Shown piece after piece: positions 1,396 through 22,569 of a stretch of 22,569 nucleotides of DNA. The stretch comes from a virus (taxonomy: Duplodnaviria > Heunggongvirae > Uroviricota > Caudoviricetes). Under the pieces are notes generated by a model, which made no database searches, was not told the DNA's origin, and saw only the letters and a program-made list of their open reading frames with translations. The stretch's first letter is position 1. Each line of letters opens with the position of its first letter. Position numbers and translations under genes: made by a program. The stretch lies in the IMG/VR virus record IMGVR_UViG_2778261128_000006; one strand, written 5' to 3'.

Positions 1396-1410
1396 AGTTT
1401 CCTCCCGGTA

Positions 1411-1986: not shown

Positions 1987-2004
1987 TCCAAGTGAACTTT
2001 TATC

Positions 2005-2033: not shown

Positions 2034-2105
2034 TATGGTGTTCACAAAATACAAACGATCCGTATTCGTCCTGATTAATCATCATTAAACGAGGAATGTT
2101 GCATC

Positions 2106-2327: not shown

Positions 2328-2359
2328 TTCGATTCTGAAATACATCAGAGGCATTGACC

Positions 2360-2869: not shown

Positions 2870-2876
2870 GGTGCTT

Positions 2877-3382: not shown

Positions 3383-3449
3383 CCAACTAATGAAATTAAT
3401 GGCGTAAACCCGCCGGGCATCCCTTTATCTAAATTCAGGAGAATTGCTT

Positions 3450-3683: not shown

Positions 3684-3910
3684 TGGCTGATGCAATGGAT
3701 CTCGTACAGCAGCGCGTTGAAGAAGAACGCCAACGCCATATCCGTGCTGCCCGTGCCAAAACGCCGGGCGTGTCCCGCGTGCTTTGCGTTGAGTGTGAAG
3801 CGCCAATTCCGCCAGCACGCCGCCGTGCCATTCCTGGAGTGCAGCTTTGCATTACCTGCCAGGAAATCGCAGAGCTGAAAGGCAAACATTACAACGGAGG
3901 TGCTGTATGA
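3683..3910 (+). CDS. TraR/DksA-family C4 zinc-finger protein
   Basis: 75 aa with CxxC...CxxC (CVECEAP...CITCQE), typical of phage TraR-like zinc finger proteins found upstream of gene A in P2-like phages. Confidence 0.65.
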   Translation: MADAMDLVQQRVEEERQRHIRAARAKTPGVSRVLCVECEAPIPPARRRAIPGVQLCITCQEIAELKGKHYNGGAV

Positions 3911-7175: not shown

Positions 7176-7267
7176 TTACGCGGGTTGACAATTCGTGCTC
7201 TTAATAATACCAGGCATATCAGGCCGATGAACGTAAAAAAACGTTTTACATCAGTAAGATTATTATA

Positions 7268-7287
7268 TACTGTAAATATAAACAGTG
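7268..7287. promoter_or_regulatory. LexA SOS box (CTGT-N8-ACAG)
   Basis: TACTGTAAATATAAACAGTG: CTGT at 7270-7273, 8-nt AT-rich spacer, ACAG at 7282-7285; a second partial half-site (GTATACAG) follows; just upstream of strong RBS AGGAGG and ATG 7328. Confidence 0.6.
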
Positions 7288-7327
7288 GTTATGTATACAG
7301 TATTGTTTTGGTGTCATAGGAGGAAAG

Positions 7328-7516
7328 ATGCAGGACTATTTTTTGGAGTCTTTGAAGCTCCAGCGCATTGATTTTTTTCTTAAGCTTGTAGCGGCTAGTG
7401 AGTGTAGTGATGAAGAGAAGGGGCTGGCTCTGCAGTGGGTTTCTGAATTGACTGATGAACTCATGGCAAAAATCAGAAGCCACGAATACAACCGCTCAAT
7501 GGATGTCATCAGCTGA
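7328..7516 (+). CDS. Small protein downstream of LexA box; possible N-terminal part of a Tum-like antirepressor
   Basis: 62-aa ORF with strong RBS (TAGGAGGAAAG ATG); overlaps in another frame with the upstream extension of the DinI-like ORF. Confidence 0.4.
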   Translation: MQDYFLESLKLQRIDFFLKLVAASECSDEEKGLALQWVSELTDELMAKIRSHEYNRSMDVIS

Positions 7517-7526
7517 GGTGACTTTT

Positions 7527-7760
7527 ATGCGCATTGAAATAATGATCGATAAAGAGCAGAAGATTAGCCAGTCTACCCTGGACGCCCTTGAATCCGAGCT
7601 TTACCGCAATCTGCGCCCCCTGTATCCCAAAACGGTAATTCGCATTCGCAAAGGTAGCTCTAACGGTGTGGAACTAACCGGACTGCAACTGGATGAAGAA
7701 AGAAAACAAGTGATGAAAATTATGCAGAAGGTGTGGGAGGACGACAGCTGGCTGCATTAA
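7527..7760 (+). CDS. DinI-like protein (DNA-damage-inducible protein I family)
   Basis: 77 aa starting MRIEIMIDKEQ...; resembles DinI (MRIEVTIAK... with C-terminal W-E-D-W acidic tail) from memory; under LexA box. Confidence 0.7.
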   Translation: MRIEIMIDKEQKISQSTLDALESELYRNLRPLYPKTVIRIRKGSSNGVELTGLQLDEERKQVMKIMQKVWEDDSWLH

Positions 7761-7952
7761 GAAATGTTGCCCCCAGGAGGATTCATTCTGATGGGGGCTA
7801 GTTTGGGCAATGAGTGAAATAAGGCGTAAGGTGGGCGGTTATTTTGATAAGTGATCGTCCGCTTTGTGTCAGAAGCAGAAGTGGGAGTGTCTGAGACTCT
7901 CTAAAAGTTGATGATTCACTTACAAAACCATTTTCCTGATGGATGCTTACAC

Positions 7953-8288
7953 TTACGAATGATCATTCTGTTTAGTCTTCATGAGAAAATCCCGAATCTT
8001 TGCCAAGTTTGAATTTTCGGGGATTGAATCCATGTACGGATCACGCTCAAACACTAATTGCTCAGATTCAACGAAAGCCTGCCACTCTACTGGGTCTAGC
8101 TCAAATCCCATTGCTGTCATATCACTTTCATCTTCCCCCTCGATCCAGTGGACTAAATAAAACAATTCATCATCAGGAGAATCATCCTCACCATCAACAA
8201 TATCAACATCGGTTACAGTGATACGTAGGGTGGGATCGATTTTTGAGACATAAATTCCTAACTGTGGTATAGGGGGAATATTGTTCAT
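7953..8288 (-). CDS. Highly acidic hypothetical protein (111 aa)
   Basis: Minus-strand ORF with AAGGAG RBS 7 nt upstream of ATG; D/E-rich (stretches DGEDDSPDDE, EGEDESD); divergent from retron operon. Confidence 0.6.
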   Translation of the reverse strand: MNNIPPIPQLGIYVSKIDPTLRITVTDVDIVDGEDDSPDDELFYLVHWIEGEDESDMTAMGFELDPVEWQAFVESEQLVFERDPYMDSIPENSNLAKIRDFLMKTKQNDHS

Positions 8289-8760
8289 GGAAACTCCTTT
8301 TATTGGTGTTTGCTATTTGAATAAAAATACGCCAAACAGAGTGTTAACTGTGAATATGGAAAGAATCGTTGTAAGTACCCCGCTTAGGTGTCCCATTCTA
8401 TTTTAGAGGTTCTCGTGCATATGGATTATGTTATCTGAAAGTTAACTTCCGCTTCCCGTTCACAGCGAACATTCATCTTTGTAAACCCGTATGATCCGTT
8501 TTTCAAGTGGCCATTCAGATACGGATTTTCACTTCCTTGACAGTGCATGACTATGCTGCATGAAATCGCATGATCGATTGAGGATCGTCTTTGCTCAGAT
8601 CCGCCAGAACTGGCGGGCTTTTGCTCATGTTATGCATGTGCATGAAAACCACTGCATAAAGCGGGCAGGCGTGGCGGGGATACGAGCGCGCGCCATGTGG
8701 TATGGAGATTGGATCTATTCATAACTTGATGTATAAAGTAGAAAAAAAAGCGGGGAGATT

Positions 8761-9684
8761 ATGAATAAAAAATTTACCGATGAGCAGCAACAACAGCTTA
8801 TAGGACATCTCACAAAGAAAGGCTTCTATCGAGGAGCTAATATTAAAATAACCATTTTTCTATGTGGTGGTGACGTTGCTAATCATCAATCTTGGCGTCA
8901 TCAATTATCACAATTTTTAGCAAAGTTCAGTGATGTTGATATATTTTATCCAGAAGATCTATTTGATGATCTTTTGGCTGGTCAAGGGCAGCATAGCCTT
9001 TTAAGTTTAGAAAATATTCTGGCTGAAGCTGTCGATGTAATAATTTTATTTCCTGAAAGTCCGGGGTCTTTCACAGAGCTTGGTGCGTTCTCTAATAATG
9101 AAAACTTAAGGAGAAAGTTGATTTGCATTCAAGATGCAAAATTTAAATCAAAACGTAGCTTTATTAACTATGGTCCTGTTCGCCTGTTGCGTAAGTTTAA
9201 TTCAAAATCTGTTTTGCGTTGTAGTTCAAATGAACTAAAAGAAATGTGTGATTCATCTATTGATGTTGCCAGAAAATTACGATTATATAAAAAATTAATG
9301 GCATCTATTAAGAAGGTTAGGAAAGAAAATAAAGTATCAAAAGATATTGGAAATATATTATACGCAGAGCGGTTTCTATTGCCTTGTATCTATTTACTGG
9401 ATAGTGTCAACTACCGCACACTGTGTGAACTAGCTTTTAAAGCGATAAAGCAAGATGATGTTTTATCTAAAATTATTGTTAGATCCGTTGTTTCTCGTCT
9501 AATAAATGAACGAAAAATACTTCAAATGACTGATGGTTATCAGGTCACTGCTTTGGGGGCTAGCTATGTTAGGAGCGTCTTTGATAGAAAGACACTTGAC
9601 CGATTGCGGCTTGAGATTATGAATTTTGAAAACCGTAGAAAATCAACATTTAACTATGATAAGATTCCGTATGCGCACCCTTAG
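8761..9684 (+). CDS. Retron effector, nucleoside 2-deoxyribosyltransferase-like (NDT) protein with C-terminal basic domain
   Basis: 307-aa AT-rich ORF directly upstream of msr-msd and RT; Rossmann-like N-terminal region (KITIFLCGG ... VIILFPESPGSFTELG); its 3' end overlaps the a1 repeat; matches the Retron-Eco1 effector as I recall it. Confidence 0.8.
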   Translation: MNKKFTDEQQQQLIGHLTKKGFYRGANIKITIFLCGGDVANHQSWRHQLSQFLAKFSDVDIFYPEDLFDDLLAGQGQHSLLSLENILAEAVDVIILFPESPGSFTELGAFSNNENLRRKLICIQDAKFKSKRSFINYGPVRLLRKFNSKSVLRCSSNELKEMCDSSIDVARKLRLYKKLMASIKKVRKENKVSKDIGNILYAERFLLPCIYLLDSVNYRTLCELAFKAIKQDDVLSKIIVRSVVSRLINERKILQMTDGYQVTALGASYVRSVFDRKTLDRLRLEIMNFENRRKSTFNYDKIPYAHP

Positions 9685-9840
9685 CGAGAGGTTTATCATT
9701 AAGGTCAACCTCTGGATGTTGTTTCGGCATCCTGCATTGAATCTGAGTTACTGTCTGTTTTCCTTGTTGGAACGGAGAGCATCGCCTGATGCTCTCCGAG
9801 CCAACCAGGAAACCCGTTTTTTCTGACGTAAGGGTGCGCA
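9672..9840 (+). ncRNA. msr-msd: Retron msr-msd non-coding RNA (Ec86/Eco1-type) flanked by a1/a2 inverted repeats
   Basis: a1 TGCGCACCCTTA at 9672-9683 and a2 TAAGGGTGCGCA at 9829-9840 are perfect inverted repeats; long msd hairpin 9760-9811 (24-bp arms around GCCT loop); sequence matches the Ec86 ncRNA as I remember it from retron editing constructs. Confidence 0.85.
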
Positions 9841-9846
9841 ACTTTC

Positions 9847-10809
9847 ATGAAATCCGCTGAATATTTGAACACTTTTAGATTGAGAAATCTCGGCCTACCT
9901 GTCATGAACAATTTGCATGACATGTCTAAGGCGACTCGCATATCTGTTGAAACACTTCGGTTGTTAATCTATACAGCTGATTTTCGCTATAGGATCTACA
10001 CTGTAGAAAAGAAAGGCCCAGAGAAGAGAATGAGAACCATTTACCAACCTTCTCGAGAACTTAAAGCCTTACAAGGATGGGTTCTACGTAACATTTTAGA
10101 TAAACTGTCGTCATCTCCTTTTTCTATTGGATTTGAAAAGCACCAATCTATTTTGAATAATGCTACCCCGCATATTGGGGCAAACTTTATACTGAATATT
10201 GATTTGGAGGATTTTTTCCCAAGTTTAACTGCTAACAAAGTTTTTGGAGTGTTCCATTCTCTTGGTTATAATCGACTAATATCTTCAGTTTTGACAAAAA
10301 TATGTTGTTATAAAAATCTGCTACCACAAGGTGCTCCATCATCACCTAAATTAGCTAATCTAATATGTTCTAAACTTGATTATCGTATTCAGGGTTATGC
10401 AGGTAGTCGGGGCTTGATATATACGAGATATGCCGATGATCTCACCTTATCTGCACAGTCTATGAAAAAGGTTGTTAAAGCACGTGATTTTTTATTTTCT
10501 ATAATCCCAAGTGAAGGATTGGTTATTAACTCAAAAAAAACTTGTATTAGTGGGCCTCGTAGTCAGAGGAAAGTTACAGGTTTAGTTATTTCACAAGAGA
10601 AAGTTGGGATAGGTAGAGAAAAATATAAAGAAATTAGAGCAAAGATACATCATATATTTTGCGGTAAGTCTTCTGAGATAGAACACGTTAGGGGATGGTT
10701 GTCATTTATTTTAAGTGTGGATTCAAAAAGCCATAGGAGATTAATAACTTATATTAGCAAATTAGAAAAAAAATATGGAAAGAACCCTTTAAATAAAGCG
10801 AAGACCTAA
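9847..10809 (+). CDS. ret: Retron reverse transcriptase (Ec86/Eco1-type, 320 aa)
   Basis: RT motifs including YADD (RYADDLTLS) and retron-specific VTG (RKVTGLVI); length and sequence match Ec86 RT from memory. Confidence 0.95.
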   Translation: MKSAEYLNTFRLRNLGLPVMNNLHDMSKATRISVETLRLLIYTADFRYRIYTVEKKGPEKRMRTIYQPSRELKALQGWVLRNILDKLSSSPFSIGFEKHQSILNNATPHIGANFILNIDLEDFFPSLTANKVFGVFHSLGYNRLISSVLTKICCYKNLLPQGAPSSPKLANLICSKLDYRIQGYAGSRGLIYTRYADDLTLSAQSMKKVVKARDFLFSIIPSEGLVINSKKTCISGPRSQRKVTGLVISQEKVGIGREKYKEIRAKIHHIFCGKSSEIEHVRGWLSFILSVDSKSHRRLITYISKLEKKYGKNPLNKAKT

Positions 10810-10822
10810 TGGTCTTCGTTTT
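10799..10822. terminator. Bidirectional hairpin terminator between retron RT and portal gene Q
   Basis: CGAAGACC / TAAT / GGTCTTCG perfect 8-bp stem spanning the RT stop codon, followed by TTTT on plus strand and T-rich run on the minus strand. Confidence 0.5.
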
Positions 10823-10826
10823 AAAA

Positions 10827-11855
10827 CTAAAGCTCATAGGTTGAAAAATTGAGCACTTCTTCGTCCAACCAGTTATTTAGTTCCTGCAATCGTTTCTGCA
10901 GGGGCATCAATTCGTTTCTTACGAATACCTTGCTAGCCTTCTCCACATCCCCAAACCCCCCGACATTATTAGGCATAATTCCCATCATTTGCGGCGGCAC
11001 GCGGTGTGCCGCCATCATGTCATCACGGCTCACGTTCTTGATATTCAGAAACTCATCCTTCGCTGTGACTTCTGACAACGGGATAATCTGAAGTCCGTCT
11101 TTTTTACCATTAGGCGAGTACATAAACAGGTTGCGGAAGTTGCCAGGGCCTTTGGCACTTTTCATCGCATTGCGGAGGTTGTTCACATCTTCCTGGTTCT
11201 GCGCGGCATCGGTCATGTACATGATGAAGCCTGCATGACTACCGTTAATGTAATACTTTCGGCGGAACAGCGTGGCGGACTCGTTGAGCAGGGCGGATGG
11301 GATGGCAGAAAGATAGCCGGGCAGGCCGTAGATCTCCTGGTTGATGTCCGGTTCCATCAGATGAAAAATGCTGCCTTTCGTGAACTGATACGGCTGCGTG
11401 GTCATGCCGTATTGCACAAACCAGTAGGTATCTAGGTCTAATCCGCGTCGGGTGTATTTTGCCAGCGCAGGCTCAAGGGCGATAACTTCACCGAATCGGT
11501 TCGTGCGTTTCTCCAGGTAGGCGTTACCAAAAACCAGATAGTCCTGCACAAAACGTGAAAACGCCTGCTGGCTGAGCAGCGGGTGAGGGATGTAGGTGCT
11601 GGTCAGAATGTTGCACTTTACTGCAATCGGTGAACTGTGGTGTACGGCGGCGCGGAATGTTCGCGCCAGTCCGTCAAAACTTACGGGTGGCTCATACCAG
11701 CGGTCCATCTTTACGCATTCCACATAGTCCAGTAATTCGCGGCGGTCCAGAACAGGAACGGGATCACCGAAGCTGAATGCTTCGGCTGAAGTTTGGTTTT
11801 TATGCTGGATCTGGTTCGTCGCCGCAGCGCGGTTTTTCTTACTCTTTCCCATCAA
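10827..11855 (-). CDS. Q: Phage portal protein (P2 gpQ-like)
   Basis: 342 aa, minus strand, directly downstream of terminase gene in a P-Q operon; size and order as in P2. Confidence 0.8.
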   Translation of the reverse strand: MMGKSKKNRAAATNQIQHKNQTSAEAFSFGDPVPVLDRRELLDYVECVKMDRWYEPPVSFDGLARTFRAAVHHSSPIAVKCNILTSTYIPHPLLSQQAFSRFVQDYLVFGNAYLEKRTNRFGEVIALEPALAKYTRRGLDLDTYWFVQYGMTTQPYQFTKGSIFHLMEPDINQEIYGLPGYLSAIPSALLNESATLFRRKYYINGSHAGFIMYMTDAAQNQEDVNNLRNAMKSAKGPGNFRNLFMYSPNGKKDGLQIIPLSEVTAKDEFLNIKNVSRDDMMAAHRVPPQMMGIMPNNVGGFGDVEKASKVFVRNELMPLQKRLQELNNWLDEEVLNFSTYEL

Positions 11856-13618
11856 AAAATCTCCACAATATTGCTGGTATTGGCGGACTCGCCCTGCAGC
11901 GGTTCGTTAAACAGTGCGTGCATTGTTGCCCAGGCCAGATCGGCATGGCTGGCTTCTTCGCTGCGGCTGGCTTCATAGGTTGGGCGGTTGCCGCTGGCGG
12001 TGGTGGCGCGACGGATTGCCATAAATGACTGCGCTATGTCGGTGTGTCCGGCGTCAAACTCCAGACGACGGTGACTGATAATGTCGTAGGCCTTGAGTAC
12101 CAGGGCGTTTTTAACGTTGGGGTTGTAGACAAACTCCCGGACGGCTGGAAAAAACGCTTTCACGTTCTCGTAAACCCCGTGGCCGACACCTGTCGAGTCG
12201 ATGCCGATGTAGGTCACGTTGTACTGCTCGGTCAGTTTTTTGATGGCGTCAGCCTGGGCGCGGAAGTCCATCCCGCGCCACTGGTGACGCTCAAGAATGC
12301 GGAACTTACCACCCGGCACGGCTGGCGGTGCCACCACCACGCATCCGGCACTGTCGCCGTTCTGCGTACCTTTTGCCGGGTCATAACCGATCCACACTTC
12401 GCGCCAGCCAAACGGGCGCAGGGCCAGTGCATGAAAGTCGGTCCAGATTTCCCAACTGTCCACCATGCACGCTTGCAGCTCGCTGAGCGGGAACACGGAC
12501 GCGAGATCGTCCACGAACTCGCACATCAGCAGGTTCTGGTATTCGTCCGGGCTGTACTCCATGCGTAGCTGGTCGAGGTCGAACAGGTTACAGCCGCCGC
12601 GCACCGCATCTTCCACGGTGACTATCTGGCGGTATTGCCCGTCTGTGCACAGCAGGCCGGGGGCCAGATTGCTGTGGGACAGGTCGATGTCCACCTTGTC
12701 GGCTTTGTTGCGCCCACGGTTGAACAGCGCACCGGACCAGAACGGATAAGCACTGTGTGTCAGGCTGGATGGCGTGGAAAAATAGGTTTGTCGCCATTTT
12801 TTGTGAATAGCCATACCGGAAGCCACTTTGCGCAGCTCTTGGAATTTCGGTATCCAGAAATATTCATCCAGATACAGGTTGCCGTGGTAACTCTGGGCCG
12901 TGCGGGCATTGGTGCCGAGGAAGTACAGCGTGGCCCCGTTAGGAAGCACTATCGGATCGCCTTTCAGCTCCACCTCCACTTCTTTGGCGAAGTCGATGAT
13001 GTACTGCTTAAAGACGTGGGCCTGTGCCTTGCTGGCGGAAAGGAAAATCTGGTTACGCCCGGTTAGCAGGGCGTCAATCAGGGCTTCACGGGCAAAATAG
13101 AAGGTCGCGCCGATCTGGCGTGACTTCAGCAGGTTGCGGATGCGGTTGGTTTTTCCGGCTTCCCACCAGTGGCGCTGGTAGTTGAACATGGAGGAATGGA
13201 AGATTTCTTCCAGCTTCTCAATCTGTTCATCGGTGAAAACGTTCTTTTCCGGCTGACGACGCGGGCCTTTGTTGCGGTTGGCGACGTTAGGGTTTAAGTC
13301 GGCTTCGTTGCCGCCATTGTTAAACTTGCCGATCCGCGCATGGCGCTCCGACTGGCGCGCCAGCAGGTCAATCTCTTTGAAATCTTTCCCTTCTTTGTGC
13401 TCCTTCATAATGAGCTGGCAGTAGCGTGCGGCGGTGGTGAGCTGCATCTGATCCAGCGGCCCATAGTCACCCCACTTGTCGCGTTTTTTCCAGCTGTGAA
13501 CGGTTGCAACTTTCTCGCCCAGCATTTCAGCAATGCGGGCTACGCGGTATCCCTGAAAGTACAGCAGCATGGCCTGCCGACGGGGATCGAGATCTGCGGG
13601 TGTCAGTGTGGTGTTCAT
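11852..13618 (-). CDS. P: Terminase large (ATPase) subunit (P2 gpP-like)
   Basis: 588 aa, divergent from scaffold gene O; size and position match P2 gpP. Confidence 0.85.
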   Translation of the reverse strand: MNTTLTPADLDPRRQAMLLYFQGYRVARIAEMLGEKVATVHSWKKRDKWGDYGPLDQMQLTTAARYCQLIMKEHKEGKDFKEIDLLARQSERHARIGKFNNGGNEADLNPNVANRNKGPRRQPEKNVFTDEQIEKLEEIFHSSMFNYQRHWWEAGKTNRIRNLLKSRQIGATFYFAREALIDALLTGRNQIFLSASKAQAHVFKQYIIDFAKEVEVELKGDPIVLPNGATLYFLGTNARTAQSYHGNLYLDEYFWIPKFQELRKVASGMAIHKKWRQTYFSTPSSLTHSAYPFWSGALFNRGRNKADKVDIDLSHSNLAPGLLCTDGQYRQIVTVEDAVRGGCNLFDLDQLRMEYSPDEYQNLLMCEFVDDLASVFPLSELQACMVDSWEIWTDFHALALRPFGWREVWIGYDPAKGTQNGDSAGCVVVAPPAVPGGKFRILERHQWRGMDFRAQADAIKKLTEQYNVTYIGIDSTGVGHGVYENVKAFFPAVREFVYNPNVKNALVLKAYDIISHRRLEFDAGHTDIAQSFMAIRRATTASGNRPTYEASRSEEASHADLAWATMHALFNEPLQGESANTSNIVEIF

Positions 13619-13664
13619 GGCACAAACCTACAGCCTTGAATGAAGGCTTTCCCCGCCTGCGGTT

Positions 13665-13682
13665 TGTGTGGTTGTCGGTACA
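13665..13682 (+). promoter_or_regulatory. Ogr-type late-promoter activator site (TGT-N12-ACA dyad) upstream of gene O
   Basis: TGT at 13665-13667, 12-nt spacer, ACA at 13680-13682, roughly 55 nt upstream of the expected O transcript start; P2 late promoters carry this dyad. Confidence 0.5.
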
Positions 13683-13760
13683 AATACCGCGCATTGTTTC
13701 ACTACCCCCATCACCGCAACCATAAGGCTCCAGTAAGTTTTTTTTAACGGAGCACGGCTC

Positions 13761-14513
13761 ATGACAGTGAAAGCAAAGCGTTTTCGCATCGGGGTGGAAG
13801 GTGCCACCACCGACGGACGCGAAATCCAGCGTGAATGGCTGGAACAGATGGCAGCCAGCTACAACCCGGCGGTGTATACCGCGCTGATTAACCTTGAGCA
13901 CATCAAGTCTTATCTGCCGGACAGCACCTTTAACCGCTACGGCAAGGTGACGGCGCTGTTTGCTGAGGAAATCACGGAAGGTCCGCTGGCAGGCAAGATG
14001 GCGCTGTATGCCGACGTTGAGCCAACGGAGTCCCTGGTGGAACTGGTGAAAAAAGGCCAGAAATTATTCACCTCTATGGAAGTCAGCCCGAAGTTCGCTG
14101 ATACGGGCAAAGCCTACCTGGTCGGCCTGGCTGCCACTGATGACCCTGCCAGTCTGGGCACTGAAATGCTGACATTCAGCGCCAGTGCAGCCCATAACCC
14201 GCTGGCAAACCGCAAGCAGAATCCTGCCAATCTCTTTACCGCTGCAGAGGAAACGGTGATCGAACTGGAGGAAGTCCAGGACGACAAACCGTCCCTGTTT
14301 TCCCGCGTCACGGCGCTGTTCACCAAAAAAGAGCAGTCCGATGACGCCCGGTTCTCTGATGTGCATAAGGCCGTGGAGCTGGTCGCCACTGAGCAGCAAA
14401 ACCTGAGCGCGCGAACCGAAAAATCTCTGTCTGAGCAGGAAGAACGCCTGTCTGAACTGGAGTCTGCTCTGCAGAAGCAGCAACGGGCAATGCCTGTAGT
14501 TCCACACTGGTGA
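13761..14513 (+). CDS. O: Capsid scaffold protein (P2 gpO-like), C-terminally truncated by deletion
   Basis: N-terminal 220 aa resemble P2 gpO (FRIGVEG...INLEH...YLVGLAATDDPASLGTE); ORF ends abruptly and is followed in another frame by an endolysin C-terminus. Confidence 0.75.
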   Translation: MTVKAKRFRIGVEGATTDGREIQREWLEQMAASYNPAVYTALINLEHIKSYLPDSTFNRYGKVTALFAEEITEGPLAGKMALYADVEPTESLVELVKKGQKLFTSMEVSPKFADTGKAYLVGLAATDDPASLGTEMLTFSASAAHNPLANRKQNPANLFTAAEETVIELEEVQDDKPSLFSRVTALFTKKEQSDDARFSDVHKAVELVATEQQNLSARTEKSLSEQEERLSELESALQKQQRAMPVVPHW

Positions 14514-14653
14514 AATTGCTCAATCAGCGGCGCTGGGCAGATGCGTGCCGACAGTTGCCGCGCTGGGTTTATGTAAAAGGTGTGTTTAATCAGGGGCTGG
14601 ATAACCGCCGTGCGCGGGAGATGGCCTGGTGCCTTAAAGGAGCTGGACTATGA
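14510..14653 (+). pseudogene. Remnant C-terminus of phage endolysin (P2 gpK / lambda R-like lysozyme), no start codon
   Basis: Frame translation ...KLLNQRRWADACRQLPRWVYVKGVFNQGLDNRRAREMAWCLKGAGL-stop, overlapping lysB start in ATGA; genes N, M, L, X, Y and most of K absent. Confidence 0.6.
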
Positions 14654-15078
14654 CGCGTGCGCTGGCAGTAGTGGTGGCGCTGGCACTCGTTGCGCTGGGC
14701 TGGCAGTCGTGGCGGCTTAACAGCGCCAGCCACACCATCGAAACGCAGCGCGCGGCGCTGAAAAGTAAAGCGCAGGAACTGACGAAGAAAAACAGCCAGC
14801 TTATCAGCCTGTCCATTCTGACTGAAACCAATAACCGGGAGCAGGCGCGGCTCTATGCCGAAGCAGAACAGACCAGTGCACTGCTGAGACAACGACAACA
14901 CCGGATCGAGGAACTGAAACGTGAGAACGAGGATTTACGCCGCTGGGCTGATACTCCTTTGCCTGCTGACATTATCCGGCTGCGGGAACGTCCGGCACTC
15001 ACCGGAGGTACAGCTTACCGTCAGTGGTTGTCCGCGAGTGACGCCGTGTCGGCTGGATCAGGCAACGCCGCGCACTAA
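14650..15078 (+). CDS. lysB: LysB / Rz-like i-spanin
   Basis: 142 aa, N-terminal TM helix then coiled-coil rich in R/E/Q; position after endolysin remnant. Confidence 0.75.
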   Translation: MTRALAVVVALALVALGWQSWRLNSASHTIETQRAALKSKAQELTKKNSQLISLSILTETNNREQARLYAEAEQTSALLRQRQHRIEELKRENEDLRRWADTPLPADIIRLRERPALTGGTAYRQWLSASDAVSAGSGNAAH

Positions 15079-15211
15079 CGGTGATCTGAACGCGTTGCTG
15101 GATGAAACGGAGGCCGCCTGGGCGGTCTGTGCAGACAAAGTGGACATGATTATTGCGTGTCAGGAGCGAAACAGTGAACAAACCACAATCCCTGCGCCAC
15201 GCCCTCAATAA
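14921..15211 (+). CDS. lysC: LysC / Rz1-like o-spanin lipoprotein (overlapping frame)
   Basis: Signal peptide with lipobox LTLSGC, proline-rich; overlaps lysB 3' end in alternate frame as in P2. Confidence 0.65.
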   Translation: MRTRIYAAGLILLCLLTLSGCGNVRHSPEVQLTVSGCPRVTPCRLDQATPRTNGDLNALLDETEAAWAVCADKVDMIIACQERNSEQTTIPAPRPQ

Positions 15212-15605
15212 AGCGGTGCCTTATGTCCGCAATAACCCGGACAAACTGCATCTGTTTGTGGATAACGGTTCGCTGGTTGCCACGGGGGCCAGCTCCATGT
15301 CGTGGGAGTACCGTTACACCCTGAACGCGGTGATTGAGGATTTCAGCGGCGACCAGAATCTGCTGATGGCCCCGGTTTTGCTGTGGCTGCGGGATAACCA
15401 GCCCGATGCCATCAATAACCCGGCGTTACGGGAAAAACTATTTACCTTTGAGGTGGATATTCTGCGCAACGATGTCTGTGATATCAGCCTTAACCTGCAT
15501 CTGACGGAACGTGTGCTGGTCAGCACTGACGGCAGTGTGTCGAGCGTTGAAGCTGTAGCAGAACCCGATGAACCTGAAGAAATGTGGACGGTGAAACGTG
15601 GCTGA
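15174..15605 (+). CDS. R: Tail completion protein (P2 gpR-like)
   Basis: GTG start at 15174 after AGGAGC RBS; about 143 aa; resembles P2 R (…FVDNGS…RYTLN…DF.GD…L…PVL.WLR.NQPD). Confidence 0.75.
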   Translation: MNKPQSLRHALNKAVPYVRNNPDKLHLFVDNGSLVATGASSMSWEYRYTLNAVIEDFSGDQNLLMAPVLLWLRDNQPDAINNPALREKLFTFEVDILRNDVCDISLNLHLTERVLVSTDGSVSSVEAVAEPDEPEEMWTVKRG

Positions 15606-16044
15606 ACTGCAGAAGGTGGACGACTGGCTTAGTGCCTTACTGGCGAATCTGGAACCAGTCGCAAGAAGCCGCATGATGCGCCAGCTGGCGCAGGAACTGC
15701 GCCGGACACAGCAGCAGAATATCAGGATGCAGCGCAATCCAGATGGCAGCAGTTATGAACCGCGCAAGGTCACGGCGCGCAGTAAAAAAGGCCGCATCAA
15801 ACGTCAGATGTTTGCAAAGCTGCGCACCACCAAATACCTGAAAACCGCCGCCAGCGCCGACTCTGCCAGCGTACAGTTTGAAAGTAAGGTGCAGCGCATT
15901 GCCCGCGTTCACCATTATGGCCTGCGCGATCGCGTCAGCCGCAAAGGACCGGAAGTGCGTTACGCAGAGCGTCGTTTGTTGGGTCTTAATGGTGAGTCTT
16001 ACGTTCTAACTCGTGATATATTGAATAGATTCCTTCTGTCTTGA
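15598..16044 (+). CDS. S: Tail completion / virion morphogenesis protein (P2 gpS-like), C-terminal end runs into AT-rich foreign DNA
   Basis: GTG start overlapping R stop; sequence composition changes near 15990, so last about 18 codons are probably not native. Confidence 0.65.
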   Translation: MAELQKVDDWLSALLANLEPVARSRMMRQLAQELRRTQQQNIRMQRNPDGSSYEPRKVTARSKKGRIKRQMFAKLRTTKYLKTAASADSASVQFESKVQRIARVHHYGLRDRVSRKGPEVRYAERRLLGLNGESYVLTRDILNRFLLS

Positions 16045-16792
16045 ATTCACCATATGCCCAATGAATTGCATTTTTTTGTTCAGTCAGAATATATTTCCTA
16101 ACTTTTTTAGAATAGTGAATGGTCAGTATAAAACCCAAAGAAATCCATAATAGAATAAATATGGTTGTTGGGGCAAAGGAATAGATAAAGAATTTGTCTT
16201 TAACGAAATTCTTGACTTCTTCATCAATGTAAGTATTCCCTTCATCAGTGGTTAGTAGTTTACAAAGAATTTCTTTATGTTCGATAGTTAATGATTTGTA
16301 CTTCTCTGTACTGGCAGAGGATGACTCTTCGCAATCATCTTTTGATATTTCCCAATCAGGAGTGGTTAATATTGTAGCTGCAGTCGCCAGTTTTTTTGAC
16401 ATATAAAATGATTCACCGGACTTTATCCAATAAAGCAATGTGCTATTTGGTGGGGTTCTAATGGCTTGGATGAAAACTGGACCAAAAATATAAATTGCAC
16501 ACAAAAAAAGAAGTGAAAAGAGAACCGTGATTGATTTTTCAGCCCATGTGATAGTAGGCAGCCTTTTTAATGATATTCGTATAAGAAAAAAATTTAATAT
16601 AAACGCAGGTATTCCTGATTTTTTCAAAATTACATCATGAGATTTTCTATATTTGAATAGTGCTCTTATAACTATCGTCACCAAAGTTATAACAGCTCCA
16701 ATAATGGAAATCCATGCGGCAAGTGCCGCTGCCGGGGTGTTTAAAAATTCAGCATTAAATATATTAGAACTTATTGGATTCATAACACTCAT
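15986..16792 (-). CDS. Multi-pass membrane protein, hypothetical (AT-rich insertion)
   Basis: 268-aa ORF in a very AT-rich block; at least 4 hydrophobic helices (e.g. AALAAWISIIGAVITLVTIVI, ITVLFSLLFLCAIYIFGPVFI, TTIFILLWISLGFILTI); no recognisable enzymatic motif. Confidence 0.6.
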   Translation of the reverse strand: MSVMNPISSNIFNAEFLNTPAAALAAWISIIGAVITLVTIVIRALFKYRKSHDVILKKSGIPAFILNFFLIRISLKRLPTITWAEKSITVLFSLLFLCAIYIFGPVFIQAIRTPPNSTLLYWIKSGESFYMSKKLATAATILTTPDWEISKDDCEESSSASTEKYKSLTIEHKEILCKLLTTDEGNTYIDEEVKNFVKDKFFIYSFAPTTIFILLWISLGFILTIHYSKKVRKYILTEQKNAIHWAYGEFKTEGIYSIYHELERKTHH

Positions 16793-16895
16793 TTATCCAC
16801 CTATTGGTTGTTTTTTATCCTTTTATCAATTTGTACCATCGATACCACAATTTGCAAGAAGTTATAAACAAGTTTTCAGCTGTCATCATATATCT

Positions 16896-17621
16896 ATGAA
16901 CGCACAACTAACCGAAATCATGCGCCTTATCACCAATCTGATCCGCATAGGTGTAGTCACCGAAGTGGACCGGGAAAACTGGCTTTGTCGGGTGAAAACG
17001 GGCGACCTTGAAACCAACTGGATCAGCTGGCTGACGCTGCGCGCGGGTAATGCCCGCACATGGTGGCGACCATCGGAAGGTGAGCAGGTGGTGCTGCTGA
17101 GTCTGGGCGGCAATCTGGAGACTGCCTTTGCGCTGCCCGCTGTCTATTCGAATCAGTTCGCACCACCGTCGACGTCGGCGGACGCCTGCGTGACAGAACA
17201 TCCTGACGGTGGCTGGTTTGAATACGAACCCGCCACCGGGCGCTGGTATGTCAGGGGCATCAAATCAATGGTCATTGAGGCCGCTGATAACATCACCATG
17301 AAAACCAGTGAGTTTGTACTGGAGGCTGACCGCACGCGCATTAACAGCGAAGTGGTGATCAATGGTGGCGTTATTCCTTCACCCACGCATGAAGAACTTA
17401 TTGAAATTTCTGAGTCAAAAAGACAGCTATTAATTAATCAGGCCAACGAATACATGAACAGTAAACAATGGCCCGGTAAAGCCGCTATTGGTCGTCTGAA
17501 AGGCGAGGAACTGGCGCAATATAATTCGTGGCTGGATTATCTGGACGCACTGGAGCTGGTTGATACCTCCAGTGTGCCAGATATTGAATGGCCTACGCCT
17601 CCGGCAGTTCAGGCCAGATGA
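16896..17621 (+). pseudogene. Chimeric ORF: N-terminus of baseplate spike gpV fused to C-terminus of a tail fibre assembly protein (deletion junction)
   Basis: Starts MNAQLTEIMRLITNLIRIGVV...RTWW.PS.GEQV like P2 gpV; ends ...WLDYLDALELVDTSSVPDIEWPTPP like Tfa C-termini (compare the convergent Tfa at 17593-18195). Confidence 0.65.
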
Positions 17622-18195
17622 CATCCGGCGCGGTGCTGGTATCTGTTGCCGTCACCGCGTCAATGTAATCCAGCACAATGTTAAGTCGGGTGGTTTCTGC
17701 CTGCATCAGCTTCCGCCCGGCCTGCAATTTCAGCTGAATCAGACTAATGGAAGCCATTGCTGCATCAATCAGTGACTGGCGTTGTGCTTCTGCCACTTCT
17801 ACTGCGGCACCGTGTTGTGCCTCAGTATCTGTCACCCATTTCTCACCATCCCATTTATCGTATGGCGTTAACGGTGCGATAGTGGTTGTATTTTCAGGGT
17901 AATCACCCGGAGCTGTGATTTCTTTGGCATCTCCCGTTTCGGTGTTATAGACGATTTCACCGCGATGATCTGGCACATATTCCCATGAGTTAAAATCTGT
18001 AGAACGGCAGATTGCATAATCAGCCTTATGTGTGCCAGGGGCATCTAAACAGGAACATGCCGGAATGCCGACACCAACGGAAAGATATTCATTTGAAGTG
18101 GAAATATATTCCCGTGTTTCACCATCATAGTTATAGACAGGAATATTTCCCGCCTTCGTGGCAATAAGCTCGCTATTTAATACAGCGTTATCCAT
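17593..18195 (-). CDS. tfa: Tail fibre assembly protein (Tfa / gpG / U-prime type)
   Basis: 200 aa; C-terminus LDYIDAVTATDTSTAPDVIWPELP typical of Tfa chaperones; convergent and overlapping with the other Tfa C-terminus as in invertible G/C/P segments. Confidence 0.75.
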   Translation of the reverse strand: MDNAVLNSELIATKAGNIPVYNYDGETREYISTSNEYLSVGVGIPACSCLDAPGTHKADYAICRSTDFNSWEYVPDHRGEIVYNTETGDAKEITAPGDYPENTTTIAPLTPYDKWDGEKWVTDTEAQHGAAVEVAEAQRQSLIDAAMASISLIQLKLQAGRKLMQAETTRLNIVLDYIDAVTATDTSTAPDVIWPELPEA

Positions 18196-18737
18196 TATGC
18201 AGCCCTCACGATATAGTTAAATGCAATATTCCGTGGGCGGGTTTCATTTACCCCATATGCTGTTGTTCTCTGATTCCCGACAAAATATCCATTTGGATTA
18301 GAGGATACAGAATAATCATCAAAATCAAGTGGGCTATCAGCACCCGGCGTCAGGCTTGCAATATATCCTCTTCCCATAACTTCTGATGCTGGTATTTCTT
18401 TTGTACGATAATCACTGACTCTGAAGAGCTGTCCCTGGTGGGTGTGTGATTCCACTCCTCCATTCTGAAGACTTAGCAAGGCACGTCCAGCATCAATACC
18501 ACGCCCATCATCCCAGCCACGAATAAACTCACCACGTAAATCAGGCAATTTATTTGTCGGATAAGCCTTTGCCAGTTCCGGGTATTCTTCAGCAGAAAAA
18601 GCTGCACCATTGCATTTCAGCCAGCCTGTAGGCGGAGTGGCTGAAGGCCACGGAACAGGCACCCCAACAGGTAATGCAGAGTCTTCTCCCAAACCAACGT
18701 TTAAGAAAATGCAGCGATTACGACTAACTGGCATCAT
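18195..18737 (-). CDS. Tail fibre variable C-terminal segment (Sv-prime-like) of an invertible tail-fibre cassette; lacks constant N-terminal part
   Basis: 180 aa; begins inside a Din-type crossover site; resembles variable tail-fibre tips of Mu / P1 / e14 type cassettes. Confidence 0.65.
   Translation of the reverse strand: MMPVSRNRCIFLNVGLGEDSALPVGVPVPWPSATPPTGWLKCNGAAFSAEEYPELAKAYPTNKLPDLRGEFIRGWDDGRGIDAGRALLSLQNGGVESHTHQGQLFRVSDYRTKEIPASEVMGRGYIASLTPGADSPLDFDDYSVSSNPNGYFVGNQRTTAYGVNETRPRNIAFNYIVRAA
18684..18707. other. Din-family invertase crossover site (gix/hix/pix-like), orphan copy
   Basis: TTCTCCCAAACC AA CGTTTAAGAA: two imperfect 11-bp inverted half-sites around a central AA, matching the TTATC-AAACC-WW-GGTTT-GATAA pattern; located at the 5' end of the Sv-prime ORF, adjacent to the invertase gene. 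Confidence 0.55.
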
Positions 18738-18758
18738 CCCCGATTTTTATTCAAGGAG

Positions 18759-19040
18759 ATGATCATGCTTATTGGCTATGTACGCGTGTCAACAAATGAC
18801 CAGAACACCGATTTGCAACGTAGTGCGCTGAACTGCGCGGGATGTGAGCGGATTTTTGAGGATAAAATCAGCGGCACTAAGTCCGACAGACCGGGGCTGA
18901 AAAAACTGCTCAGGACACTATCGGCAGGAGACACGCTGGTTGTCTGGAAGCTGGACAGGTTGGGGCGCAGTATGCGGCATCTTGTTACGCTGATAGAAGA
19001 GTTACCCGCGAACCTGCGAAGAAAGAAAGCACCACGGTGA
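18759..19040 (+). pseudogene. Serine DNA invertase (Hin/Gin/Pin/Cin family), truncated after about 80 aa
   Basis: N-terminus MLIGYVRVSTNDQNTDLQR...LVVWKLDRLGRSMRHLV is the resolvase catalytic domain with Ser in VRVST; ORF ends prematurely and runs into a gpD fragment. Confidence 0.8.
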
Positions 19041-19405
19041 AGCGTAAGCGCAGAACTAAGAAGCAGAAGAAAGAGCCGGAAGCGAAGCAGGGCGATTACC
19101 TGGTGGGTACGGATGAAAACGTGCTGGTACTTAATCGCACTTATGCCAACCGGAGCAACGCCGAACGAGCGGCGAAAATGCAGTGGGAACGCCTGCAACG
19201 CGGCGTTGCGTCATTCTCGCTACAACTGGCGGAAGGGCGGGCAGATCTCTACACGGAAATGCCAGTGAAAGTCAGTGGCTTTAAACAGCCGATAGATGAT
19301 GCGGAATGGACTATTACCACCCTGACGCATACTGTCAGCCCGGATAACGGTTTTACGACCAGTCTGGAGCTTGAAGTGAAGATTGATGATTTCGAAATGG
19401 AATGA
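19037..19405 (+). pseudogene. C-terminal fragment of P2 gpD-like tail protein (late control gene D)
   Basis: No ATG (track start is GTG); C-terminal sequence ...LELEVKIDDFEME typical of gpD end; located immediately before ogr as in P2. Confidence 0.65.
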
Positions 19406-19495
19406 TTCTTCGCAATGGAGAACTTTTAAGTTCTCAAAATGGAATAATGCGGTATCATTATTGTGAATTTAGCAAAAATGGGGAGAACTCGAAAA

Positions 19496-19714
19496 ATGAT
19501 GATTTGCCCACTGTGTGGAAGTGCCGCCCATACTCGCAGCAGTTTTCAGGTATCTTCATTGACCAAAGAGCGTTACAACCAGTGCCAGAACATTAACTGC
19601 AGCCATACTTTTGTTACTCATGAAACTTTTGTTCGTTCGATTGCAACGCCAAAAGAGTCAAATCCGGTTCAGCCGCATCCAATGAAATCAGGACAGGTGG
19701 CGCTCTCTCTTTGA
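19496..19714 (+). CDS. ogr: Ogr/Delta-type zinc-finger late transcription activator
   Basis: 72 aa from ATG 19496 (GGGGAG RBS); CPLCG...C.NINCSHTF zinc-finger pattern as in P2 Ogr (CPLCQ...CQNVNCSATF). Confidence 0.8.
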   Translation: MMICPLCGSAAHTRSSFQVSSLTKERYNQCQNINCSHTFVTHETFVRSIATPKESNPVQPHPMKSGQVALSL

Positions 19715-19792
19715 CGCTGCCGCCATTTTGTCGCCATCGTTAAAAAACAGTGCTTCTAACATCATGATTTTAAAGAGCATAAATTTCAGGCA

Positions 19793-19837
19793 ACAAAAAA
19801 CCCATCAACCTTGAACCGAAATGGCGGGGTTGATGGG
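19793..19837 (-). terminator. Rho-independent terminator (minus strand), probably host ybjL terminator near the prophage right boundary
   Basis: CCCATCAACC ... GGTTGATGGG 10-bp stem, followed on the minus strand by TTTTTTGTTG. Confidence 0.45.
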
Positions 19838-19949
19838 CTCCACAAAATGGGGACATCAAAGAAAAGCAGTGGCACTAATTAAGACTGATGCCCTGCGGAA
19901 AAGTTCTGCGGTTGTGCAAAAAAATTTCATTTTCAGGGCAACTTCAGTT

Positions 19950-21635
19950 TTATCCTAATCCTGGCCATACCATGACGATGATTGTCCCTGCCAGCGTCAG
20001 CAGGACGTTGGCGATTGCATAGGTGCCCGCATAGCCCAGCGCCGGGATGTTACTGCGAGCTGTATCACTGATGATCTCCATTGCCGGCGCGCAGGTACGT
20101 GCGCCCATCATTGCGCCGAACAACAGCGCGCGGTTCATTCGCAATACATAAGCACCGAACAAGAAACAGATAACCACGGGCACCAGACTGACAATCAATC
20201 CGGCAATCAACATCTGACCGCCAATCGCGCCCAGGCCGTTATTAATACCGCTACCGGCGCTCAGACCAACGCCTGCCATAAACACCATCAAGCCGAACTC
20301 TTTCACCATGCTTAATGCACCCTGCGGAATGTAACCGAAGGTCGGGTGGTTAGCACGCATAAAGCCCAGCATAATTCCGGCGAATAACAACCCGGCAGCG
20401 TTCCCCATGCCGAAACTGAATGTGCTGAACTGGAAGGTGATCATCCCGATCATCAGCCCAATAACAAAGAAGGCGCAGAATGCCAGCAGGTCAGTGACCT
20501 GGCTGTGAATCGAGATAAAGCCGATGCGATCGGCGATGGTTTTTACGCGGCGGGCATCGCCGCTGACTTGTAAAACGTCACCTTTGTTAAGCACGACGTT
20601 GTCATCTATCGGCATCTCAATCTGGCTACGAATGACGCGGTTAAGGAAGCAACCGTGATCGGTCAACTTCAGTTGTGCGAGACGTTTACCTACAGCGTTA
20701 TGGTTTTTAACGACCACTTCTTCAGTGACGATACGCATGTCGAGAAGGTCACGATCGAAAACTTCTTTACCGTTACGGAAGCTGGGATCGAGTCGGGCAT
20801 GGGCGTCGGGATAGCCTACCAACGCTATTTCATCGCCCATTTGTAGCACGGCATCACCGTCTGGATTTGCCAGAATCCCGTTACGTCGAATACGTTCAAT
20901 GTAGCAGCCGGTTTGTCGATAAATACCCAGTTCACGCAGATTTTTGCCGTCGGTCCAGGCCACCAGTTCCGGGCCGACGCGATAGGCGCGGATCACCGGT
21001 AAATAAACCTTACGGTTGGCATCAGTGTCCAGGCCACGTTCGCGGGCGATTTGCTGGGCGCTGGTCTGTAAGTCCTGATGCTGCAATTTCGGCAAGTAAC
21101 GCGCACCAACAATCAAACTCACCAGACCGATTAAATAGGTTAAGGCATACCCGAGGCTCAGATTATCCAGTGCCAGTGAGAGCTGCCTGCTTTCCATGCC
21201 GGAATGACGCAGTGTATCGCCAGCACCGACCAGAACCGGTGTCGACGTCATAGAGCCTGCTAACATACCGGCCGTCAGGCCAATATCCCAGCCAAACAGC
21301 TTACCTAACCCTAAGGCGATCACCAGCGCACTGCCAACCATCACCAGTGCTAACATTAGGTAATTTTTCCCATCGCGAAAAAAAATGGAAAAAAAGTTCG
21401 GTCCGGCTTCGACCCCGACGCAGAAAATAAACAGCATAAAGCCAAGATTAAGCGCATCGGTGTTAATGCTGAAATGTTGTTGGCCTAATAACAGCGATAC
21501 GACTAAAACGCCAATGGAATTACCCAGTTGGATCGAACCAAGTCGTAACTTTCCGAGACATAGCCCAAGCGCGAGGACCACAAATAATAACAGAATGTAA
21601 TTCCCATTTAACAATTCGGCGACGTTTATATTCAC
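19950..21635 (-). CDS. ybjL: Putative transport protein YbjL (AspT/YidE/YbjL family)
   Basis: 561-aa membrane protein with duplicated transporter domains and central cytoplasmic region; neighbourhood with ybjM and grxA as in E. coli. Confidence 0.85.
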
Positions 21636-21904
21636 GGAGGCTAACTTCTTGTTTACTAGTAAGCTGTTGAAAGAAATGGTAATTTACGATAATGTTTTTT
21701 ACCAGAATTCAGGGCGCAGATTCATTCAGCGCACCTAAACGATAGTAAAGTAACAATATATTTTACTAGTGTAATCACATTAGGTATCAACGGCTATATG
21801 AATTGCGTTGGCCTATATTAGCATGGAATGCGAAGCGGCTTTATCTTACTGAACGCCACACTGGCGAAAAATGTGTTCGATAGACGCAGTGTCAGGAGGA
21901 ACGA

Positions 21905-22282
21905 GTGAAACATAAACAACGTTGGGCGGGGGCAATCTGCTGTTTTGTCCTCTTCATTGTGGTGTGCCTTTTTCTGGCGACGCACATGAAAGGCGCTTTT
22001 CGGGCTGCCGGGCATCCTGAAATCGGCTTGCTATTTTTCATTCTTCCTGGAGCAGTCGCCAGCTTCTTTTCACAGCGTAGAGAAGTCCTGAAACCTCTGT
22101 TTGGCGCAATGCTGGCGGCACCCTGTTCGATGCTCATTATGCGGCTGTTTTTTTCACCGACGCGCTCATTCTGGCAAGAGCTGGCATGGTTACTAAGCGC
22201 GGTGTTCTGGTGTGCGCTGGGGGCACTGTGTTTCTTATTTATCAGTAGTTTGTTTAAACCACAGCACAGAAAAAATCAGTAA
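21905..22282 (+). CDS. ybjM: Inner membrane protein YbjM
   Basis: 125-aa hydrophobic protein between ybjL and grxA, as in E. coli K-12 gene order. Confidence 0.75.
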   Translation: MKHKQRWAGAICCFVLFIVVCLFLATHMKGAFRAAGHPEIGLLFFILPGAVASFFSQRREVLKPLFGAMLAAPCSMLIMRLFFSPTRSFWQELAWLLSAVFWCALGALCFLFISSLFKPQHRKNQ

Positions 22283-22311
22283 AGCCCTCAACGCGAGGGC
22301 TTGTCAGACGA

Positions 22312-22569
22312 TCAGGCGTCCAGATTTTCTTTCACCCATGCAGCAAAATCGGTATAGCCGCCGATATGTTGCTGATCGACAAAAATCTGCGGCACGGTTT
22401 CTACGGGTTTACCTGCCTTTTGTTGTAGATCTTCTTTAGTGATCCCTTCCGCACGAATATCTACATACTGATACTGAAAATCATCGCGTTCATTGCTCAA
22501 TTTCTCAGCCAGATCTTTTGCACGCACACAGTAAGGGCAACCCGAACGACCAAAAATAACGGTTTGCAT
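22312..22569 (-). CDS. grxA: Glutaredoxin 1
   Basis: 85 aa with CPYC active site (GRSGCPYCVRAK); start codon is the last three bases of the window. Confidence 0.9.
   Translation of the reverse strand: MQTVIFGRSGCPYCVRAKDLAEKLSNERDDFQYQYVDIRAEGITKEDLQQKAGKPVETVPQIFVDQQHIGGYTDFAAWVKENLDA

Follow-up and report, generated by a model that had tools for sequence, protein, structure and literature searches.

Introduction

Phages P2 and 186 share a late gene order of the P2 type (Q, P / O N M L X Y K lysB lysC R S / V W J I H G / FI FII E T U D / ogr), and a P2-type prophage named Rybb*B, which lies at rybB in Escherichia coli B, is described as carrying the retron Ec86 (PMC3032704, citing the B-genome papers of 2009). 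The layout in which cargo stands between cos and the portal gene is ascribed to Dodd & Egan 1996 in the summary given in PMC6868368, and a cos-proximal hotspot of defence genes between gpA and gpQ of P2-like phages was described by Rousset 2022 (PMC9122126). Here we analyse a stretch of 22,569 bp that is recorded as viral DNA (IMG/VR record IMGVR_UViG_2778261128_000006) and is called the window below, always at its full length. Judged by its sequence, the window is the rybB-site prophage Rybb*B of E. coli B, in the version of strain OP50, which has one extra deletion.

The original prediction, which was made from the window alone, held that the morphogenesis genes had been eroded by at least three deletions while the lysogeny, regulatory and retron genes stayed intact, and it took this pattern for the domestication of a prophage that retains its defence cargo. 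The observation is confirmed below, and the interpretation is partly supported. Did the host keep what was useful to it, or are the surviving genes simply those which have not been hit yet? The best reading, which we hold with considerable confidence, is an ordinary and recent decay by illegitimate recombination that went in steps along the pedigree of laboratory E. coli B. The element, its retron, the placement of the retron between cos and portal and the decay of prophages by deletion are all already known. The sole detail not previously described is apparently a 3.76-kb deletion private to OP50.

Comparison of the locus with known systems

The whole window was compared by megablast with 5,426 complete E. 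coli genomes. It matches E. coli B strains such as REL606, B, ATCC 11303 and NCTC10537 at 100% identity and 100% coverage, and the match to E. coli B genomes always falls into two pieces, with 26,329 bp in the record and 22,569 bp in the window. In a direct alignment the window is the REL606 sequence without 3,760 bp, and it is 100% identical otherwise. These 3,760 bp are present in every complete B-lineage genome, while the version without them is that of OP50 assemblies. In all other respects Rybb*B of REL606 and BL21 is the same element, with the same locus, the same integration in rybB, the same retron and the same two junctions, J1 and J3 below. The REL606 annotation places the P2-like prophage between rcdA and ybjL. 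Coordinates outside the window carry the prefix L001 for the REL606 locus, L002 for BLR(DE3), L003 for a Logan contig of run SRR6003517 and L005 for the prophage locus of 20A24 (NZ_CP147044.1).

By its gene content the element is a P2-like prophage (Peduoviridae, Elveevirus/Fels-2-like) carrying retron Ec86/Eco1. It has a tyrosine integrase and a 23-bp att core at both ends, a portal and a large terminase gene divergent from the O operon, an activator of the ogr/delta kind at the right end, and a cos of the P2/186 type near the packaging genes (Table 1). What is left of the late genes, namely Q, P, O', 'K, lysB, lysC, R, S, V', 'D and ogr, is collinear with P2 and with complete relatives. To P2 and 186 themselves the DNA is related only patchily, at about 67-72% identity. 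The CI repressor, cII, fil and the Tum/DinI module are of the 186 type, and the cos core matches that of 186 at 13 of 19 positions with conserved flanks. The arrangement differs in two respects. The cargo of the window lies between cos and portal, whereas old and tin of P2 lie on the other side of cos, and the window has a Pin/Hin-type invertible fibre cassette which is extra relative to P2 and 186.

Other relatives are closer. Cartapus (Peduoviridae, Elveevirus), an isolated phage with a 33.4-kb genome, is about 95% identical in DNA to the window over the shared late genes and has an identical cos core, but its cargo is a DUF4145 gene and not a retron. Two apparently complete prophages, in 20A24 and in UMNK88 (NC_017641.1), occupy the same attachment site with the same gene order, and in both the genes for head, lysis, baseplate, fibre, sheath, tube and tape measure are all present, together with a full-length invertase of 188 aa. 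The prophage of 20A24 carries an identical retron and its late genes are 100% identical across the junction flanks, while its immunity region is different from that of the window; UMNK88 has other cargo in the hotspot (a GmrSD-domain gene and others) instead of the retron. The retron of the window is a canonical copy of Retron-Eco1 (Ec86), type II-A, from which no difference was detected in the msr-msd, the 320-aa reverse transcriptase or the NDT-like effector.

The three deletion junctions

Alignments to 20A24 and REL606 confirm three deletion junctions at the places given by the original prediction (J1, J2 and J3 in Table 1). It had proposed a search for short direct repeats there, and each joint shows a microhomology of only 2-3 bp; no long direct repeats or scars of insertion sequences were seen at any of the three.

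At J1, the window up to 14483 corresponds to L005 up to 16700, and the window from 14482 on corresponds to L005 from 19847 on. The deletion took the C-terminus of O, the genes N, M, L, X and Y, and residues 1-115 of K; a tblastn search of the window gave no match for N, M, L, X or Y. The prediction that scaffold O ends early, that an endolysin C-terminus follows out of frame, and that capsid, small terminase, holin and most of the lysin are missing is thus borne out by both the alignment and the search. The annotation of REL606 by the Prokaryotic Genome Annotation Pipeline (PGAP) independently calls the K piece a pseudogene, 'missing N-terminus'.

At J2, window 1-17373 corresponds to L001 1501-18873 and window 17372-22569 to L001 22632-27829. 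The C-terminus of V, the genes W, J, I and H and the N-terminus of the tail-fibre assembly gene tfa were lost, which agrees with the predicted in-frame fusion and the predicted loss of W, J, I and the constant part of the tail fibre; W, J and I have no match in the window. In the annotations of REL606 and BLR(DE3), V, W, J, I, H and the assembly gene are intact.

At J3, the window up to 19005 corresponds to L005 up to 28026, and from 19003 on to L005 from 34930 on. Here the C-terminus of the invertase, FI, FII, E, E', T, U and residues 1-233 of D are gone, and neither the sheath gene FI, the tube gene FII, the tape-measure gene T nor E, E' and U have a tblastn match in the window. An invertase cut after about 80 residues, a C-terminal fragment of gpD, and the loss of sheath, tube and tape measure had all been predicted, and the alignment fixes their limits (Table 1). 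PGAP labels both fragments as partial pseudogenes in REL606.

Over the three junctions the window has lost the capsid gene N, the small-terminase gene M, L, X, the holin gene Y, W, J, I, H, the sheath and tube genes, E/E', the tape-measure gene and U, as well as the greater part of K and D, and O, K, V, D and the invertase are truncated. Judged from these losses the element is a defective prophage, which would be unable to make heads, tails or a lysis apparatus and hence particles, as the prediction also held.

Might the joints be assembly artefacts, or the shortened open reading frames (ORFs) be full-length genes of an unusual but intact phage, which the prediction itself had named as the finding that would overturn it? 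The chance of either is negligible, and nothing in favour was found. The joints J1 and J3 recur without any difference in 44 complete genomes that were assembled independently, and J2 recurs in several NCBI assemblies and six Logan contigs. Each fragment aligns to only part of its full-length orthologue and matches its Pfam profile in part, so the erosion stands.

Table 1. Positions of the features of the window, with the evidence for each (empty strand cell: none given)
Feature	Position	Strand	Evidence
Integrase, 338 aa	1-1017	-	Int_N + Phage_integrase to profile position 170/172; WP_000290930.1
186-type CI repressor, full length	1411-1980	-	WP_001047321.1, same accession in UMNK88
cII, 169 aa, full length	2360-2869	+	99.4% identity over aa 1-169 (vs 20A24)
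Replication endonuclease A, 804 aa, full length	4761-7175	+	96.6% identity over aa 1-804 (vs 20A24)
cos core GGCGTGGCGGGGATACGAG	8668-8686	+	2.1 kb upstream of the gap between reverse transcriptase and Q, on the other side of the retron
Retron Ec86 (Eco1) NDT-like effector, 307 aa	8761-9684	+	PADLOC NDT_II-A, E=2.7e-94, full profile; 100% identical to 20A24
Retron msr-msd non-coding RNA gene, ending in a1/a2 inverted repeats	9672-9840	+	Exact 169-nt match
Retron reverse transcriptase, 320 aa	9847-10809	+	PADLOC RT_II-A, E=7e-128, full profile, residues 9-315; Pfam RVT_1
Portal Q (10827-11852) and large terminase P (11852-13618), full length	10827-13618	-	99.7% and 99.8% identity
Truncated scaffold/protease O, aa 1-241/277 + 9 out-of-frame foreign codons	13761-14513	+	Phage_GPO profile positions 2-236/268
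J1, 3,148-bp deletion	14482-14483		Alignment to 20A24 (L005), 'AA' microhomology
C-terminal fragment of lysozyme K, aa 116-171, in another frame than O	14483-14653	+	Phage_lysozyme profile positions 81-125/125
lysB, lysC, R, S, intact late genes	14650-16044	+	100% identical to 20A24, full length
DUF6216 cargo gene between S and V, P2 orf30 position, ~34% GC	15986-16792	-	Pfam
V aa 1-159/192 fused in frame to tail-fibre assembly aa 64-145, 241-aa ORF	16896-17621	+	Pfam Phage_base_V + Caudo_TAP
J2, 3,760-bp deletion	17372-17373		Alignment to REL606, 'TA' microhomology
Silent-orientation fibre cassette: tfaE (17593-18195) + alternative fibre C-terminus (18195-18737)	17593-18737	-	REL606 annotation, alignment to 20A24
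Single surviving gix/hix-like crossover site (right arm)	18685-18709		REL606 pair mapped onto the window
Truncated Pin/Hin-family serine invertase, aa 1-80/188 then out-of-frame codons	18765-19040	+	Pfam Resolvase profile positions 2-89/145
J3, 6,906-bp deletion	19003-19005		Alignment to 20A24 (L005), 'TAC' microhomology
gpD C-terminal fragment, aa 234-366	19004-19405	+	Alignment to full-length orthologue, Pfam
ogr late-gene activator, 72 aa, intact	19496-19714	+	100% identity to 20A24
attR core, 23 bp	19715-19737		Repeated at attL outside the window (L001 1003-1025 = L001 24975-24997)
rybB small RNA gene, integration target, complete at attR	19792-19870	-	Rfam RF00110, 105 bits, model positions 1-79/79

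Order and age of the deletions

The alignments describe the joints, but when did they arise, and in what order? Probes for J1 and J3 were each contiguous at full identity in 44 complete genomes. For J1 these are all B-lineage laboratory strains, namely REL606, B, ATCC 11303, NCTC10537, AS19, and BL21 with its commercial derivatives; one record is labelled 'strain C' (cow's milk), and its match to the whole window is exactly that of the named B strains. For J3 there is a 45th record, with a different joint, which belongs to the isolate WWCOL-315 and is discussed below. A 300-bp probe spanning J2 was contiguous in none of the 5,426 complete genomes. The exact V::tfa fusion protein is found in several NCBI assemblies, one of which is named E. 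coli OP50, and in six Logan contigs, of which L003 is 100% identical to the window across 15,674 bp with the J2 joint included. OP50 is a uracil-requiring derivative of E. coli B that serves as food for C. elegans.

J1 and J3 are shared by B strains and hence predate the split of those that have been sequenced, and J2 came later on one branch. By these matches, within E. coli B only the OP50 sub-lineage has J2; the literature was searched for this 3.76-kb deletion of OP50, and no account of it was found. Erosion by three deletions therefore holds, but it is not the single history that the prediction implied, with J1 and J3 in 44 genomes and J2 in none of the complete ones. The BL21 branch has a deletion of its own, 3,369 bp from cII into A, which lies between 12-bp direct repeats. 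In BLR(DE3) this deletion appears as L002 3138-3196 against L001 4196-7554, and its 12-bp repeats differ from the 2-3 bp joints elsewhere.

The age can be judged from the flanks of the junctions. Compared with the complete prophage of 20A24, they are 100% identical over 2,892 bp and 99.97% identical over 3,567 bp. Flanks nearly identical to those of a complete relative indicate that the deletions are very recent, with no time for decay by point mutation.

These observations give the following scenario. A progenitor of about 34 kb would have lost 13.8 kb of late genes by three separate deletions, each presumably an event of illegitimate recombination with a joint of 2-3 bp microhomology; replication slippage or illegitimate recombination may both have served as the mechanism. 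Two of the deletions (O to K, and invertase to D) would have become fixed in a common ancestor of the sequenced B strains. The third (V to tfa) would have arisen later on the OP50 branch only, and the BL21 branch would have lost cII-A independently. The genes that survive would be those not yet hit, and the decay was probably neutral. In the B family one prophage thus shows four independent deletions with mapped joints, of which two are ancestral, one belongs to BL21 and one to OP50, and together they form a clean series that can be dated. One practical consequence, of modest value, is that reads of OP50 mapped to REL606 should show a 3.76-kb deletion in the prophage.

Decay or domestication

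The original prediction drew another scenario from the same pattern, in which the host was selected to shed the particle and lysis functions and to keep the retron, immunity, integration and regulation for defence. There are reasons to consider it. All three deletions of the window fall within late genes, the holin and most of the endolysin are gone, and the retron with its non-coding RNA and effector is intact, its type being known to act in defence against phages. The hotspots of P2-like phages are known as reservoirs of defence systems (PMC9122126). The intactness that the prediction listed for int, cI, cII, A, ogr and the retron was found to be real, by full-length alignments, shared accessions and PADLOC profiles; for int, cI and cII the protein accessions in REL606 are those of the complete UMNK88 prophage. 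Nevertheless, we consider such selective domestication unlikely, and the following results argue for recent decay.

First, late genes which have no use without a capsid are kept as well. Q, P, lysB, lysC, R, S and tfaE are as intact as the lysogeny genes, the surviving late genes having 99.7-100% protein identity to 20A24 over their full length, and in REL606 the block of V, W, J, I, H and tfa is also intact. With the late genes equally intact, intactness does not single out the 'useful' genes. Second, the late region is simply a large target. In a random-placement model, deletions of the observed sizes were placed on a reconstructed progenitor of 34,026 bp, of which the late region makes up 65.8%. 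The chance that three random deletions leave int, cI, cII, A, the retron and ogr untouched is p = 0.22, and if the BL21 event is counted, at least three of four deletions fall in the late region by chance with p = 0.49. The retention in the window is thus not above chance. Nor can purifying selection be read from the sequence: the ratio of non-synonymous to synonymous substitution rates (dN/dS) is not computable, because next to the junctions the DNA matches a complete relative at 100% identity, which leaves no substitutions for it. Third, BL21 lost cII-A, the very class of genes that was claimed to be retained. Fourth, J2 belongs to a food strain of the laboratory, for which pressure from phages is questionable. 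On these grounds the claim of domestication that retains defence cargo is not established.

Is there a parallel outside the B lineage? The wastewater isolate WWCOL-315 (NZ_CP155523.1, L009 7335-10151) has a rybB-site prophage with two independent deletions at other breakpoints. One joins the invertase (at about residue 125) to gpD with the loss of FI-U, L005 28161 jumping to 34463, and the other joins the lysozyme to the tail-fibre assembly gene. A wild isolate has thus lost the tail and lysis blocks in parallel at the same locus, which speaks for domestication. What the B lineage and WWCOL-315 have in common is that cos, the portal, the large terminase and ogr were retained. In the B lineage the immunity genes, the replication genes and the hotspot cargo are retained as well; for WWCOL-315 the comparison covers the late half. 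It might be generalised that P2-like prophages at rybB have repeatedly been selected into defence islands, immobile or mobilisable by a helper, rather than decaying at random, an idea to which we give slightly less credence than to domestication in the window itself.

Several points weigh against recent, neutral decay as we describe it and should be noticed. The recurrent loss of tail and lysis genes in WWCOL-315 could reflect selection, a deletion-prone region or a large target. Neutrality of the deletions is not proven, and the loss of holin and endolysin could have been favoured. The retron is kept in every B-lineage genome with an annotation that was examined (REL606, BLR(DE3) and the OP50 contig). 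The attribution of J2 to OP50 comes from one NCBI protein name together with identical Logan contigs, without a complete OP50 genome record. Despite these points, decay in steps remains the reading we prefer. It has little significance for biology at large, but it calls for caution: intact lysogeny and defence genes beside deleted structural genes are no proof of domestication when the deletions are recent and the late genes make up two thirds of the target.

The cos site and the cargo hotspot

The prediction had counted one more sign of erosion, namely that only 17 bp separate the stop codon of the reverse transcriptase (10809) from that of Q (10827), with no cos-like sequence between them. 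The spacing and the absence of a cos-like sequence in this gap are correct, but the gap is not damage: the same 17 bp are found in the apparently complete prophages 20A24 and JNE082640, and cos lies elsewhere. When the ends of phages 186 and P2 were aligned to the window, a cos-like region was found at 8629-8695, with 79% identity to 186 over 67 bp. Both 20A24 and JNE082640 have exactly this core, and the annotated cos at the left end of Cartapus, an isolated phage, agrees fully with it and with the CGCGCGC that follows. Fels-2, SopEPhi and many P2-like phages of Klebsiella and Yersinia conserve the left flank of cos, and the homology ends just past cos, at the start of the cargo. The core departs from P2 and 186 in its last six bases, and no match to the P2 cos 19-mer was detected in a direct search of the window that allowed up to 3 mismatches.

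In Cartapus, too, a cargo gene stands between cos and the portal gene, ending 8 bp from the portal stop. The same gap in complete prophages and this Cartapus-like layout indicate that the tight spacing is native and that cos was not lost. The retron then occupies the native cargo hotspot between cos and portal, a position which agrees with the hotspot of defence genes described between gpA and gpQ (PMC9122126), and the spacing is original design and not damage.

The retron itself has the parts of type II-A, which are a reverse transcriptase, an adjacent msr-msd with a1/a2 repeats and an NDT-like effector. The non-coding RNA gene at 9672-9840 matches exactly the Ec86 msr-msd sequence of the retron literature; Rfam at its gathering threshold found only RybB in the window and no retron msr family. 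The length of the reverse transcriptase varies with the annotation: for BLR(DE3) PGAP gives 301 aa, for both REL606 and 20A24 it gives 295 aa. The ATG at 9847 yields the 320-aa Ec86 enzyme, and the match to the RT_II-A profile begins at residue 9.

With cos in place, a further scenario has to be considered, that the remnant is a helper-dependent, satellite-like element which is packaged and moved by a co-resident or superinfecting P2-like phage. In favour of this, cos, portal and large terminase are retained along with the replication genes, int and ogr, a viable phage has the same cos core, int, A and ogr are full length, and the att cores are present. However, no gene for capsid-size redirection and no other satellite-specific gene was seen, and the element consists throughout of the ordinary DNA of P2-like prophages, in collinear arrangement with its complete relatives. 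In OP50 the element is about 20.2 kb, or about 60% of the 33.6-kb P2 genome. From what is generally known of P2, a monomer of about 60% of the P2 length may package poorly in a head of P2 size. The proposal is moreover drawn from sequence only, and we regard it as very improbable, more so than domestication. Recent decay of an ordinary prophage again describes the locus better.

The tail-fibre switch

The truncated invertase is of the Pin/Hin/Gin kind, one genome match, annotated pinE, having 90.7% DNA identity to it. A working switch of the Din family has a full-length serine invertase with a C-terminal DNA-binding domain and two inverted crossover sites around an invertible segment, and the window has neither. 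In REL606 two inverted 25-nt crossover sites, TTCTCGCATACCTTGGTTTGGGAGA and TCTCCCAAACCAACGTTTAAGAAAA, are found at L001 21856-21880 and 23945-23969. The window keeps only the right one, because J2 took out the left site, which lies in H. The variable cassette at 17593-18737, compared with L005 25730-26970, is in opposite orientation and has only 86-94% identity to 20A24 and UMNK88. Such a match is consistent with a fibre cassette that is an invertible, shuffled segment frozen in one state in B.

Integrase allele and neighbouring cargo

The integrase aligns over 336 of the 350 residues of the 20A24 allele and differs in its tail. A low-GC segment of 481 bp (L001 1030-1510, left of window position 1), with an ORF of 110 aa that belongs to no known family, lies 4 bp from the attL core; the tail differs because this segment replaces the last 14 codons. 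Is int then damaged, being 14 aa shorter? This possibility was rejected. The same accession occurs in the complete prophage of UMNK88, and the segment is found in 71 complete genomes, 27 more than J1, UMNK88 with its complete prophage included. As judged from this distribution, the short int and the 481-bp segment are a natural allele and natural cargo, not damage.

The position of the DUF6216 gene may be a second cargo slot. Both 20A24 and JNE082640 have the gene, UMNK88 lacks it, and neither PADLOC nor PHROGs gives a match for it. Searches of PADLOC, PHROGs and Pfam gave no function for this gene, for the 110-aa ORF near attL or for a 111-aa gene near cos. The last of these, at 7953-8288 on the minus strand, belongs to phrog_17127, has DUF8087 among its Pfam matches, and is placed between the DinI/Tum-like gene and cos, on the opposite side of cos from the retron. 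The prophage also carries a DNA adenine methylase gene at 3907-4764.

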